From Patescibacteria group bacterium (lineage in GTDB: Bacteria > Patescibacteriota > Minisyncoccia > Phycocordibacterales > UBA2100): a stretch of DNA of 53,553 nt. Position numbers and translations under genes: made by a program. The DNA lies in the NCBI GenBank assembly GCA_021731295.1, contig JAKFXQ010000024.1, positions 1-53,553 on the forward strand, written 5' to 3'. Of this stretch, positions 4,754 through 29,847 are shown piece after piece (the first letter of the stretch is position 1; every line of letters begins with the position of its first letter). The notes beneath the pieces are model-generated. The model searched no databases. It had not been told where the DNA came from and was given only the letters and a program-made list of their open reading frames with translations.

Positions 4754-4828
4754 TGGTGCGCGCTGAAGGGATCGAACCTTCGGCCTTCCCCTTATCAGAG
4801 GGATGCTCTACCACTGAGCTAAGCGCGC
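4754..4828 (-). tRNA. tRNA-Ile(GAT)
   Basis: GCGCGCT acceptor, TAGCTCAGTGGTAGAGC D arm, anticodon loop CT-GAT-AA, GGTTCGATCC T arm, encoded CCA. Confidence 0.97.
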
Positions 4829-9664: not shown

Positions 9665-11123
<1,459 letters not shown>

Positions 11124-25727: not shown

Positions 25728-25838
25728 TGTGTTGGCGCCTAGCTACTCTCGCCTTGCGACTACCATCGCCTCAACTGGGCTTAACTGCCGTGTTCGGAAA
25801 GAGAACGGGTGTACCCCCAGCGACAAAGCACCAACACA
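25728..25838 (-). rRNA. rrf: 5S rRNA
   Basis: ACACCCGTTCTCTTTCCGAACACGGCAGTTAAG, GATGGTAGT; terminal helix TGTGTTGG/CCAACACA. Confidence 0.95.
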
Positions 25839-26098
25839 CACGATTCAATAAATGTGAATACGATTGAAATGAACTTCGGCCATTGGCAACCGAAGAACGA
25901 CACGAATTAGAATACTCAGGAAAACACTCACGCGACTCCCACAATCCCAGGTCACCCGTAGCTGCGCTACGGCCTACACCTTAGGAAGTTCTGTCGATTC
26001 ATTAGTACACCTCGGCTGAGTGCATTACTGCACGTGCACCTGGTGCCTATCAACGTGGTCATCTCCCACGAATCTCAACGATTCCTTATCTTGGAGTC

Positions 26099-26131
<33 letters not shown>

Positions 26132-26298
26132 AATCCCGACATAGCTACGGGGCGGTGCTCCTGGCGGAACAGCCCCCAGACCAGCGGTCAGTTCATTCCG
26201 GTCCTCTCGTACTAGGAACGAATCTCCTCAAGAATCAACGCCTACAGCAGATTAAGACCAACCTGTCTCACGACGGTTTGAACCCAGCTCACGTACCT

Positions 26299-26332
<34 letters not shown>

Positions 26333-26606
26333 TCTCCAGCCCCGGGATGAGATGAGCCGACATCGAGGTGCCGAACATTGTCGTCGATTTGGACTCTTAG
26401 ACAATACCAGCCTGTTATCCCCAGAGTAACTTTTATCCGTTAATCTTCGGCCGCATCTAATGCGGACCGTCGGTTCACTTTGCTCAGCTTTCGCTCCTGC
26501 TCGGGATGTACCCCTTGCAGTCAAGCCACCTTTTGCCAATGCACTATCGGCACGGTTTCCATTCGCGCCTAGGTGACCATAATAGGCTCCTCCGTTACTT
26601 TTTAGG

Positions 26607-26901
26607 CACTATGTTACGCGCACACACTGTGCGGGTGCATGTATTTCTACTGCACTCTCTGCATCGCTGCAGAGGTCGGACTATATCATCGTCGCGACTG
26701 CATTTACTCAGTCGGACGGTCAGCGTGTAGTCTCTGAGGGATTTCATGTGAATGAAACTTCCCTGCTGATTGTCTGACGACATAACGGATTCGTCAGGTG
26801 TTCCAGCATATAGCTAACTTTGCTTGCCGCGATTACTCACGGCAGTCCCCCTTTTATTTTGTACACATCCCCGGATAAGAGAATGTCTTAGGCGCTACTT
26901 A
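26607..26901 (-). mobile_element. Group I intron, no ORF, in 23S after E. coli position 2262 (295 nt)
   Basis: Exon U before and terminal G; P AUGCUGGAA, Q AAUCAGCAGG, R UCAGAGACUACA, S AUGAUAUAGUCC; P3 GUUAGC/GCUGAC; IGS AGGGGGAC pairs with ligated GUCCU|CCU through a U.G wobble. Confidence 0.93.
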
Positions 26902-27231
26902 AGGACAGCGCCCCACCGAAACTGCCCACCAGGTACGGTCTCTCTAGAGGTTTATCTCAAGAGGTTAGAAGATACAATTTCTAAGAGTGGTGTTGCATTG
27001 GCGACTCCACGAGAGCCAGAGCCCTCGCTTCAAAGTCTCCCACTTACGCTACGCGGAAAAATCGTATCCCCAATACCAAGTTGCAGTAAAGCTTCTGGGG
27101 TCTTTTCGTCTAGCTGCAGGAAGGCGGCATCTTCACCGCCCTTGTATTTTCACCGGGCAAATGCTCGAGACAGTTCCCAAGTCGTTATACCATTCGTGCG
27201 CGTCTGAACTTACCAGACAAGGAATTTCGCT

Positions 27232-27409
27232 CGGGTTTCCTTAAACCAGGACCATTTCTTCATCCACCGAGGTGGAGCATGACGTATGGCCTCTCATCTG
27301 AGTCATGTTGTTCTAGGACCGTGGTACGCGTTACCGAGTACCGAGGTAGCTTCGCACTTCACTCATATAATCGTCCTAGTCCTTCCGCGCCCCATTGCTG
27401 AGACGCAGA
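27232..27409 (-). mobile_element. Miniature group I-like intron in 23S after E. coli position 1931 (178 nt), apparently lacking P4-P6
   Basis: Removal restores CCUAAGGU|AGCGAAAUUCC; terminal G; P7 GAGGCCA/UGGUCC, P3 CAUGAC/GUCAUG, P8, J8/7 AAGAAA, P9. Confidence 0.85.
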
Positions 27410-28849
27410 ACCTTAGGACGATTATAGTTATCGCCGACATTGACCGGGGCTTATATAGCGCCAGCAATATGCATTGCTGCATAAGACCGACCATACTTGA
27501 CCTTCCGGCATTGGTCAGGCATCACCCCCTATACATCCTCTTTCGAGTTCGCAGGGAGCTGTGTTTTTGGTAAACAGTCGCTTGGGAATAATTATCTGCG
27601 ACCACTCAAATAAATGAGTGGCTGGGCTTATTGCGAACGTACGCCCGCTTTCTTGCCGAGTTCCTTGAGCATCTCTCACCCGTTCGCCTTGGTCTACTCG
27701 ACCTGAACACCTGTGTCGGTTTGCGGTACGGTTCATCTAGTGTTGAAGCTTAGAAGCTTTTCTAGGAAGCGCGCTCATGTGGATTCTCTTCGACGAATCT
27801 CCGATTCTCGCCCGTACTCGGAGTAATGCTGCCCGGATTTGCCTAGGCTGCCTCCCTATACGATCGACGTAAATCCTTAATACGCCCACACTACTGCACT
27901 CCGTCACTCCATCGCACACTAAACAAGTCACGGAATATTAACCGTGAATCCATCATCTGCGGCTGTCGCCATCGACTTAGGACCGACTAACCCTTCGTTG
28001 ATCTCCATTGCGAAGGAAACCTTGTTCTTTCGGCGCCCCGGAGTCTCACCGGGGTTGCGGTTACTCGTGCCAACATTATCACTTCCCGTCGCTCCACTAT
28101 GGGTCGCCCCTTTAGCTTCATCGCAACGAGAACGCTCTCCTACCACGTCATCTATCCGAAGACAGATGACATCCGCAGTTTCGGTACTACACTTAGCCCC
28201 GATCATTTGTGGCGCAGAATCTCTGAGTGAGTGAGCTGTTACGCTTTCTTTGAATGATGGCTGCTTCTAAGCCAACATCCTCACTGTCTGTGAAATTCCA
28301 CCTCCTCGCTTGCACTTAGTGTAGATTTAGGGACCTTAACTGGCGATCTGGGCTGTTTCCCTTTTGACGTGTGGAGCTTCGCCCCCACCGTCTAACTGCC
28401 GTATTCTTGACCTCTGGTATTCGGAGTTTGATAGGTTCAGTGGCCTTGCGGCCGATCTAAACCTTCCAGTGCTCTACCCCCAGAGGGAACATACGACGCC
28501 AGCCCGAAAGCTGTTTCGGAGAGAACCAGCTATTACCAGGTTCGATAAGCTTTTCACTCCAACCCACAAGTCATCCCAAGATTTTGCACTATCTACGGGT
28601 TCGGCCCTCCCGCCGTACTTCTACGACGTTCAGCCTGCTCATGGGTAGCTCACCTGGCTTCGGGTCTAATACGTACTACTAGTCGCGCTATTCACACTCG
28701 CTTTCGCTGCGGCTCCATCCGAAAAGACTTAGCCATGCAGTACGCATTAACTCGTTGGCTCATTCTTCAATAGGCACGCCGTCGAGGACTTGCGCCCTCT
28801 CCGACTCCTTGTAGACATATGGTTTCAGGTCTATTTCACTCCCCTTACC

Positions 28850-28892
<43 letters not shown>

Positions 28893-29847
28893 ATCTCTAA
28901 AAGTATGTAGCCTTACCAGTTAGTTCTGGCGAATTCACCCGAGCTATTCGTGTCTCGAGTTACTCAAGAACTACAGCCATAGAGATGCATCGTTTTCGGA
29001 TACGGGGCTATTACCCGCTGTGGCCCGGCTTCCCAACCGGTTCTCCTAACTACGCATTTTGTAACTCTACGCCCTTACGGGCACGCTGTAGCCTTATGAC
29101 CCCCATCCCCAAAATCATCCCGCGACTTGCGTCGCGTTCTGATTTTGTGGCTGAGTTTGGGCTCCTCCCTTTTCGCTCGCCGCTACTAAGGGAATAACTA
29201 TTGTTCTCTTTTCCTCTTGGTACTGAGATGTTTCACTTCCCGAGGTGCACTCTCATTACTTTTTAGGGTTATGAGTCATACAGGTTCACTGTACGGGGTT
29301 ACCCCATTCGGAAATCTCCGGATCGAAGGTTGCTGGGCACCTCCCCGAAGCGTATCGCCGCCATGCTGCGTCCTTCATCGCCTTTTAGAGTCTAGGCATC
29401 CACCATACGCCCTTACTCAGAACTCCTGCGGCGCTAGGCCGTATCGCACCTTTCGGTGTGACCAGGGATTCTGAGAACCGCGTTTTTGTGTCTTGTATCC
29501 AACACCGCGTCAAACCGCCTATCTGAAAGATAAGTGGGTGGACCGAATCTGACTGTTGCCAGACTCGGTCCACGGGTCAAGCCGTACGCGAAACATACCT
29601 CGGCTTGACGCGGTGTTGGAATTTTTTCCTGCATCTCACGAGGCAAGACGGCCTCATGAGAAGTAATCCCTTCGGCCTCTCGGCCGACGGGTTTTTGATT
29701 CTTTTTCGTGTCGTTCTTCAGTTGTCAATGAACGTCACGCAGGGTCAAGAAAAAAGCCGCTTGGGAGCGGCGCGTTCTGCACAGACAAATGTCTAGGCTA
29801 ATCGCGCCACGTTCCGTACTGCTTTCCGAACACCATACGTAGGCCGG

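Follow-up and report, generated by a model that had tools for sequence, protein, structure and literature searches.

The 53,553-nucleotide (nt) contig JAKFXQ010000024.1 of a Patescibacteria group bacterium (the whole of this stretch is referred to as the window) carries in its 23S ribosomal RNA (rRNA) gene a 178-nt insertion, here termed the mini-intron, which is probably derived, by reduction, from the group I introns found at this 23S site in small-genome bacteria of the candidate phyla radiation (CPR) type. It departs from group I introns in three defining features that were tested, namely the U.G pair at the 5' splice site, the P4-P6 domain and the score against the group I model, and for this reason is classed as a reduced variant and not as an ordinary member. 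Mini-introns are a conserved class, not a one-off, and their anatomy, homology, conservation and covariation were established by the comparisons given below. Judged from these comparisons, they appear to be a real, conserved and hitherto undescribed variant of group I introns, for which we infer the mechanism proposed further on.

A full-length bacterial large subunit (LSU) rRNA was identified by Rfam at 25983-29426 (-), with the 5S rRNA adjoining (coordinates are given on the minus strand, the one with the sense of the RNA), and the Rfam LSU alignment contained an insertion of ~181 nt directly 3' of helix 69 (H69). Reading of the sequence set the insertion at 27409..27232 (-), 178 nt, with the 5' exon ending in ...CCUAAGGU (the same exon is also written ...UAUAAUCGUCCUAAGGU or ...GGCGAUAACUAUAAUCGUCCUAAGGU) and the 3' exon starting with AGCGAAAUUCC. 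The splice context (exon ...AAGGU, intron ...CCCG, 3' exon AGCG) has the exon-final U and intron-final G of group I boundaries. The site, which we take to be that after U1931 of 23S in E. coli numbering, falls at the base of H69, on the conserved strand that links H69 to H71. Public runs contain contigs in which 27410 is followed directly by 27231, exactly 178 nt being skipped; one of them, from a DNA run, has 148 + 125 flanking bases and zero mismatches, so that intron-less alleles with these exact boundaries exist. The host genome is ~1 Mb in size (50 contigs, 95% complete; relatives of the host have 0.5-1.1 Mb) and contains the 178-nt intron sequence in a single copy, the 23S gene being the sole copy found in the 95%-complete assembly. 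An RNase III-cut intervening sequence, as in fragmented 23S rRNA, would be an extended stem-loop in place of a variable helix tip at one of the known sites; it was ruled out by the position in the conserved H69-H71 strand and by the group I core elements; in the available text of PMC11270868, intervening sequences of the RNase III type are placed elsewhere, at 23IS2 and 23IS4.

The elements of the mini-intron are listed in Table 1. Those on which an earlier, sequence-only reading of this DNA was built (the opening hairpin Pa, the 13-nt exon complement, GCUACCU and the CUAGGAC/GUCCUAG pair) were all present where that reading had placed them. Two further group I hallmarks were found: a P1/P10 guide just 5' of P2, complementary at 7/7 positions to the AGGU/AGC junction (the exon is invariant here, which makes covariation impossible), and a P3-P7 pseudoknot with P8, J8/7 and P9, in which P3 was 97% paired with both-side changes in 4/6 pairs, P7 was 86.7% paired and five P9 pairs covaried. 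A P4-P6 domain, with P4, P5, P6, J4/5 and J6/7, is absent; P3 is separated from P7 by 10 nt (27301..27292), compared with at least 60 nt in the relatives (UAUAUGCUGGGAA...AAUCAGCAGG).

Table 1. Elements of the 178-nt mini-intron and its exon targets, with window coordinates and the basis for each assignment (percentages and changes refer to the 28 aligned mini-introns).
Element	Position in exon or intron	Window coordinates	Strand	Basis
Target of long guide in 5' exon, UAUAAUCGUCCUA	exon -5..-17	27414..27426	-	perfect 13-nt complement of 27366-27378
5' exon AGGU, exon strand of P1; splice-site U = 27410		27410..27413	-	pairs with guide ACCU in 28/28 mini-introns
Whole mini-intron, 178 nt		27232..27409	-	insertion in LSU alignment, sequence, intron-less alleles
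Opening hairpin Pa, 11 bp, GCAA loop	intron 1-26	27384..27409	-	fold
First AGGAC copy, possible partner of J2/3 GUCC	intron 27-31	27379..27383	-	sequence
Long exon guide UAGGACGAUUAUA	intron 32-44	27366..27378	-	perfect 13-nt complement of exon
Variable linker between guides, ends AA	intron 45-59	27351..27365	-	15 to ~60 nt among mini-introns
Short guide GCUACCU		27344..27350	-	GCU with 3' exon AGC (P10), ACCU with 5' exon AGGU (P1)
P2 hairpin, GUAA loop	intron 68-87	27323..27342	-	fold; both-side changes in 8/8 pairs
GUCCUAG in J2/3, the 'exon mimic' of the sequence-only reading	intron 91-97	27313..27319	-	inverted repeat with 27373-27379
P3 5' strand CAUGAC	intron 103-108	27302..27307	-	pairs with 27278-27283
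10-nt joint UCAGAUGAGA replacing J3/4, P4-P6 and J6/7		27292..27301	-	comparison with full-length relatives
P7 5' strand GGCCAU	intron 119-124	27286..27291	-	pairs with 27250-27255; 86.7% paired
P3 3' strand GUCAUG	intron 127-132	27278..27283	-	pairs with P3 5' strand
P8 hairpin	intron 134-147	27263..27276	-	fold; 68.6% paired, partly misaligned
J8/7 UGAAGAA	intron 148-154	27256..27262	-	GAAGA.A nearly invariant
P7 3' strand AUGGUC	intron 155-160	27250..27255	-	pairs with P7 5' strand
P9 hairpin, conserved AAGG loop, terminal G at 27232		27232..27249	-	fold; both-side changes in 5/6 pairs
3' exon AGC, P10 target		27229..27231	-	paired with GCU in 28/28 mini-introns

Descent from full-length introns was traced through close relatives of the host. 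BLAST of the 178 nt against 60 relatives gave a match to nt 17-43 only, in four genomes of the same genus, all of which have introns of 691-775 nt at the same junction (three distinct intron sequences, that of G031 being identical to that of G036 over the stretch read). These introns have a Pa that differs in sequence but keeps its pairing, and they also carry GGAAGGACURGGAC, GCUGCCU directly 5' of a GNRA-capped P2, GUCY, P3, the classical P4 strands (UAUAU-GCUGGGAA...AAUCAGCAGG) and a LAGLIDADG-like open reading frame (ORF). The 3' end of one of them, G033 (CAGAGACUACA...GAAGAUAUAGUCC), was aligned by Rfam to the group I model at 20.9 bits; P7 of the mini-intron is homologous to GACUA/UAGUC of G033, and its J8/7 matches the AAGAUAUAGUC element of the Rfam consensus as aligned in the same intron. 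P4-P6 excepted, the mini-intron aligns element for element with relatives of the G033 type. No LAGLIDADG ORF is present in the 178 nt, and the 95%-complete genome gave no match to PF00961 (LAGLIDADG_1).

Scans of sequence collections anchored on the exon end and GGAAGGAC(URGGAC) returned at least 128 records, of which 99 were complete and 78 of those unique (all family counts are among the matches listed). P4-P6 was missing from 41 of the 78 unique complete introns, 40 of these being 178-236 nt long and one 461 nt with an insert in P8, and was present in the remaining 37. Contigs with the mini-intron family were labelled Kaiserbacteria, Nomurabacteria, Adlerbacteria, Yonathbacteria, Saccharibacteria and similar; L034 and L102 bear different candidate-phylum labels and have flanks that are 98-99% identical. 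In the genus of the window, 10 of 116 species genomes had a family intron (two mini-introns, eight with P4-P6). Fourteen loci had a family intron and a recognisable 3' exon, at least nine from a first genome-contig scan with a loose pattern, which gives no distribution outside CPR lineages, and five others; hosts with the 3' exon AGCGUAAUUCC or AGCGCAAUUCC were counted, and they include ~13 mini-introns plus two exceptions, L188 and L157, which are taken up below.

RNAalifold applied to the 28 mini-introns returned the exon-guide helix, Pa, P10, P2, P3 and P9. Compensatory changes were seen in 23/42 pairs; in Pa, 98.4% of cells were paired and 5/9 pairs had changes on both sides. For the full structure, including the crossing P1, P7 and exon-guide helix, 86.4% of cells were paired, against 75.0% in shuffled alignments and 37-47% with partners slid, and the covariation score was 0.383 against 0.172 shuffled (reached by 0/500 shuffles). 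The lower scores of P7 and P8 (Table 1) arise because one subgroup has another P7 register and because MAFFT misaligns P8. Invariant columns cluster in P7, J8/7, P7' and the P3-P7 joint, the AGAG of which does not vary in any of the 28. Sequence identity among introns was about that of the flanking 23S over 300-600 nt (for example 81.9% vs 81-82% and 98.0% vs 97.8-99.2%, among 36 + 28 pairwise comparisons), which fits constraint rather than decay. The same comparisons, in which intron identity follows that of the flanking 23S, gave no sign of recent transfer of mini-introns, and mobility by reverse splicing, which the sequence-only reading had raised as something the guides might direct without an endonuclease, found no evidence in its favour. 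Separately, the P9 loop AAGG/AGGA (window 27239-27242; alignment columns ~342-347) is conserved in mini-introns and full-length relatives alike, and its motif is found again in the exon (AAGG) and in the first guide region (AAGGA).

The J4/5 region of P4-P6 is the receptor of the splice-site wobble in group I introns. In the mini-intron the splice-site U faces A27347 of the short guide, and the U-A pair was found in 28/28 aligned mini-introns. Among introns without P4-P6 the partner was A in 41, G in 0 and U in 0 (n=41; 34 guides GCUAC[CU]U and 7 GUUACCU), whereas among those bearing P4-P6 it was A in 2, G in 32 and U in 3 (n=37). The replacement of U.G by U-A, claimed from the single sequence, thus held for 41/41 P4-P6-less introns. 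The short guide reads GCURCCU in nearly all relatives and GCUGCCU in those bearing P4-P6; in the genus sample, A was found in 2/2 mini-introns and G in 8/8 P4-P6 introns. L215 and its genus twin L266 (233 nt) are mini-sized, keep a P4-P6 of 60 nt and have G. Opposite U in the neighbouring guide helix the A:G ratios in the 28 mini-introns were 7:21, 19:9 and 22:6, as against 28:0 at the splice site, and A looks to be maintained in mini-introns and G where P4-P6 is present. The suggested fit between the lost wobble and the lost receptor stood as an association; it did not stand as an order of events, with A also occurring in P4-P6-bearing L188 and L157. L157 shows that the change from G to A can arise in a full-length intron, and the reverse order is equally possible, with U-A first and P4-P6 then dispensable.

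The second guide is longer, its target spanning the 3' half of the H69 loop, the H69 3' strand and 3 nt beyond. In this window the 13-mer complement occurs twice against 0.01 expected (two or more in 0/100 shuffles), the minimum-free-energy fold with exons places a 13-bp exon-intron helix under the first hairpin with H69 excluded (z = -3.79), and the same helix is part of the consensus structure across the 28 homologues, all of which supports the contention that the complementarity did not arise by chance. Two separate guide segments complementary to the exon had been proposed, and both were recovered: the 7-nt guide lies just 5' of P2, and the 13-nt guide forms this intron's version of a conserved helix in which exon -5..-18 pairs with the 14 nt after GGAAGGAC (79 unique exon-plus-guide combinations). 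The uninterrupted helix was most often 14 bp (34/79), followed by 11 bp (14) and 13 bp (13). In the 28 mini-introns it was 95.4% paired, and two of its columns covary with the exon (UA 17/CG 10/UG 1 and CG 17/GU 9/GC 1). Exon -5..-9 and guide positions 1-6 were set by the search pattern, and exon -5..-10 with its partners carries no evidence.

Whether the guide follows the host H69 across genomes, the check that the sequence-only reading had called for, was examined on this set. Host exon AAUCG goes with guide GACGAUU, GACGGUU or GACUAUU, AACGG with GACUGUU (16) or GACCGUC (1), AAUUG with GACAAUU or GACGAUU, AACUG with GACAGUU, and AUUGAACGG (one host) with GUUCAAU. At the variable positions 566/632 cells were paired, compared with 490 ± 7 (522 at most) over 2000 shuffles. 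A tree from which the guide columns had been left out showed 8 changes of exon type and 8 of guide type, and in 4/4 independent pairs on well-supported branches exon and guide changed together (the floor of the sign test being p = 0.125). Most of the guide variation is A/G opposite exon U, which is the signature of an RNA helix.

The long-guide helix is a property of the whole family, mini-introns and P4-P6-bearing introns alike, and may, we infer, have prepared the family for the loss of P4-P6. By complementarity the guide competes with H69 for the H69 3' strand. The helix and P1 occupy adjacent exon stretches with their partners in crossed order, and would therefore form a pseudoknot if both formed at once. 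At five loci (L002, L003, L006, L079 and L212) another intron ends 8-9 nt upstream, inside the H69 loop; in loci of this type the long guide is partly complementary to the tail of the upstream intron (AUUUGU/GCAAAU, UCCU/AGGA) and mismatches the mature H69 loop at those positions. The long-guide pairing seems to occur in the precursor.

A switch of pairings through an exon mimic had also been put forward, on the basis of the perfect 7-nt inverted repeat CUAGGAC (27379..27373)/GUCCUAG (27319..27313). The GUCC of J2/3 is kept in 90/98 sequences; its pairing with the second GGAC copy reached 7 bp in 2/90, however, and was limited to the 4-bp core in 45/90. Pairing with the first AGGAC copy was no better supported, that copy being set by the search pattern in all relatives and its flanks being without clear covariation. 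The 7-bp form is a local feature of the window intron and its closest relatives, and the switch was not upheld.

According to earlier work cited in the available text of PMC11270868, the insertions in the rRNA of CPR bacteria are taken out of the transcripts. The mini-introns are probably still removed from 23S rRNA, since the 23S gene is single, the site lies at the base of H69, the guide would block folding of H69 and the catalytic parts are conserved. The mini-intron has kept the substrate domain (P1, P10, P2) and the guanosine-site half of the core (P3, P7, P8, J8/7, P9 and the terminal G), and has lost the homing-endonuclease ORF and the entire P4-P6, P3 reaching P7 through the 10-nt joint. 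By complementarity and comparison, GCUACCU pairs with 4 nt at the end of the 5' exon and 3 nt at the start of the 3' exon and so aligns both splice sites, with a Watson-Crick U-A at the position where group I introns normally have U.G, and the 13-nt second guide pairs with the 5' exon at -5..-17 and tethers it. As we picture it, removal would still take place by guanosine-initiated transesterification, with the P3-P9 half as the catalyst, and the long tether together with an all-Watson-Crick P1 of 4 bp may compensate for the docking energy of the U.G wobble on its J4/5 receptor. Such splicing might be independent of protein, or a host protein may assist it. In its fullest form, which we put forward tentatively and hold to be less likely than not, the proposal is that P1-P2 and P3-P9 halves of 178-236 nt self-splice without P4-P6, that U-A and the 14-bp guide replace docking, and that the nucleotide pocket has been retuned, some members perhaps using a nucleotide other than guanosine.

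With regard to the 3' end, the last intron nucleotide is often not G in the family at position 1931 (L1931), and it goes with the first P7 pair. Among the 56 cleanly parsed of 64 unique complete introns (e.g. L002, L040, L159, L241, L004), the combinations of first P7 pair and terminal nucleotide were G-C/G 32, G-C/A 5, A-U/U 13, U-A/C 5 and U-A/U 1, and none of the 56 with an A-U or U-A first pair ended in G. The first P7 pair is, by position, presumably the guanosine-binding pair, and such a pattern could reflect a retuned nucleotide specificity or the use of a non-canonical 3' splice site. An intron without a terminal G is reportedly known in Coxiella. L155 and L197, two mini-introns from metagenomes, have A as the terminal nucleotide and close with AGCGAAA, the same 7 nt with which the 3' exon opens.

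Several points weigh against a splicing-competent intron of group I descent. No match to RF00028 was obtained on 27150-27480 even at E <= 10. To our knowledge, every group I ribozyme characterised so far draws on P4-P6 for its active site, and a natural intron without P4-P6 may therefore be inactive alone; the genome, 95% complete, yielded no LAGLIDADG_1 gene for a possible maturase. Four public runs (three of RNA, one of DNA) gave zero cover of the mini-intron, and also none of the canonical intron in the same gene. The exact 178-nt joint was present in RNA runs X2 and X5 and likewise in DNA run X3, and so reflects intron-less relatives and not splicing. Two of the 28 mini-introns end in A and not G (26/28 end in G). 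A opposite the splice-site U occurs with P4-P6 kept in L188 (311 nt), L157 (746 nt) and the incomplete L252. Exon -1..-9 and the 14 nt that follow the hairpin were prescribed by the search pattern, and at these positions the family consequently provides no evidence. Mini-introns form one clade (support 98/93) when the joint columns are kept; without these columns the best tree has 2 changes, of which well-supported branches force only 1. The association of A with loss of P4-P6 may accordingly rest on one or two events, and the mini-introns may descend from a single ancestor. Independent origins were considered and were not established, the two trees disagreeing.

Three other explanations were weighed. 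It is unlikely, though not negligibly so, that removal is achieved by something other than the intron's own catalysis, with the 7-bp splint and the tether presenting the junctions to host enzymes or a protein cofactor, or with P4-P6 supplied in trans, e.g. from the canonical intron ~330 nt downstream on the same transcript. All mini-introns have a perfect Watson-Crick 7-mer across the junction and no P4-P6, a canonical group I intron bearing P4-P6 is at hand at 26657-26891, and P4-P6 and P3-P9 of Tetrahymena are said to assemble in trans in vitro. The conserved parts are, however, the catalytic ones (J8/7, P7, and a terminal G matched to P7), none of which a mere splint would need, and the 95%-complete genome has no LAGLIDADG_1 gene.

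It is rather improbable that the insertion is the dead remnant of a group I intron, decayed beyond splicing and staying in mature 23S as a tolerated expansion at the base of H69, with its complementarities left over. P4-P6 is missing, the U.G pair is lost, Rfam gives no match, and an unspliced intron has reportedly been described at the same site in Simkania. Notwithstanding this, P1, P10, P2, P3, P7, J8/7 and P9 are kept, and show compensatory changes, in 41 unique P4-P6-less introns, which have not diverged faster than the rRNA around them; the match between the terminal G and the first P7 pair is preserved, and a 13-14-bp helix on the H69 3' strand would probably be harmful if kept in the ribosome.

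Highly improbable is a third view, in which the long complement prevents H69 from forming before the intron has left, as a device for folding or timing, or is a by-product of internal UAGGAC/GUCC pairing: UAGGAC can indeed pair with exon or J2/3, the J2/3 GUCC is widely conserved, and the minimum-free-energy exon helix excludes H69 and encloses the 5' splice site, but the complementarity runs 7-8 nt past the shared core on the exon side only, an extension that the internal pairing lacks, and the long guide covaries with exon variants; the device would in any case be compatible with, and not exclusive of, a spliced mini-intron.

With respect to the surrounding locus, the canonical group I intron that shares the 23S gene with the mini-intron was matched by Rfam at 26657-26891 (-) with 64 bits, P4-P6 included. 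Intron-less contigs skip 295-298 nt there (26607-26901 (-)), so that this intron is longer than its Rfam match. The 16S rRNA gene (9665-11123) is unlinked from 23S-5S (25730-29426), the two being ~15 kb apart, and a lone tRNA-Ile is present in the window at 4754-4828.

P4-P6 and the U.G wobble are among the most conserved features of group I introns. A natural lineage without both would mean either that half of the core is enough in vivo when the substrate is held more strongly, or that bacteria with very small genomes supply an unknown helper. Should the mini-introns prove to self-splice, no natural group I ribozyme would be smaller, and their long programmable exon guide would make them a compact scaffold that can be retargeted. 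They would also account for part of the CPR rRNA insertions that covariance models leave unclassified; only 45% of 23S insertions were called group I in one survey, as given in the available text of PMC11270868.

The known system closest to the mini-intron is that of the LAGLIDADG-encoding group I introns of 23S position 1931 (a site termed 23IS7 in CPR bacteria and host to I-ShaI), which have also been reported in Thermotoga, Simkania, cyanobacteria and organelles. The mini-intron shares with them the site, the opening hairpin, the two guides, P2, P3, P7, P8 and P9, and is unlike them in having no ORF, no P4-P6 and U-A instead of U.G. In the portion of PMC11270868 that is accessible, LAGLIDADG_1 insertions at position 1931 are described in CPR bacteria together with shorter ORF-less forms at the same sites, the short forms are treated as ORF loss or gain only, and the term 'P4-P6' has 0 occurrences; L1931 introns of 654-700 nt are reported from other bacteria in the corresponding portion of PMC1995217. 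Neither natural P4-P6-less group I introns nor a group I guide on H69 was described in the full-text literature searched, a scope that leaves aside subscription journals and the supplements of PMC11270868.

Among laboratory constructs, the P4-P6-deleted Tetrahymena ribozyme is the nearest parallel, having the P3-P9 half alone with P1 supplied, as in the mini-intron. Ikawa, Shiraishi and Inoue are said to have obtained in 2000 Tetrahymena ribozymes without P4-P6 (the 'minimal catalytic domain'), with weak activity and a need for helpers. The mini-intron differs in being a natural conserved lineage with an added exon tether of 13-14 bp. In trans-splicing ribozymes, the extended guide pairs with the substrate downstream of the splice site. 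Engineered trans-splicing group I ribozymes with such a guide, in which a short P1 is reinforced by a longer duplex, are described in the available text of PMC6155759 and PMC3895272. The mini-intron, in contrast, is natural, acts in cis and pairs with the upstream exon. The GIR1 lariat-capping ribozyme keeps a P4-P6-like domain, is without P1 and catalyses branching and not splicing. It resembles the mini-intron in being derived from group I, in its ~180-190 nt and in its remodelled core (available text of PMC2219692). The two guides recall the exon-binding sites EBS1/EBS2 and intron-binding sites IBS1/IBS2 of group II introns, where, too, adjoining stretches of the 5' exon are each bound by a separate intron segment. 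Group II introns are, however, an unrelated class of ribozyme with unrelated chemistry, and the distal guide of the mini-intron lies 5' of the proximal one, crossing it as a pseudoknot. The guide logic of the mini-intron (P1, P10) is group I-like, and its two exon-binding sites are group II-like.

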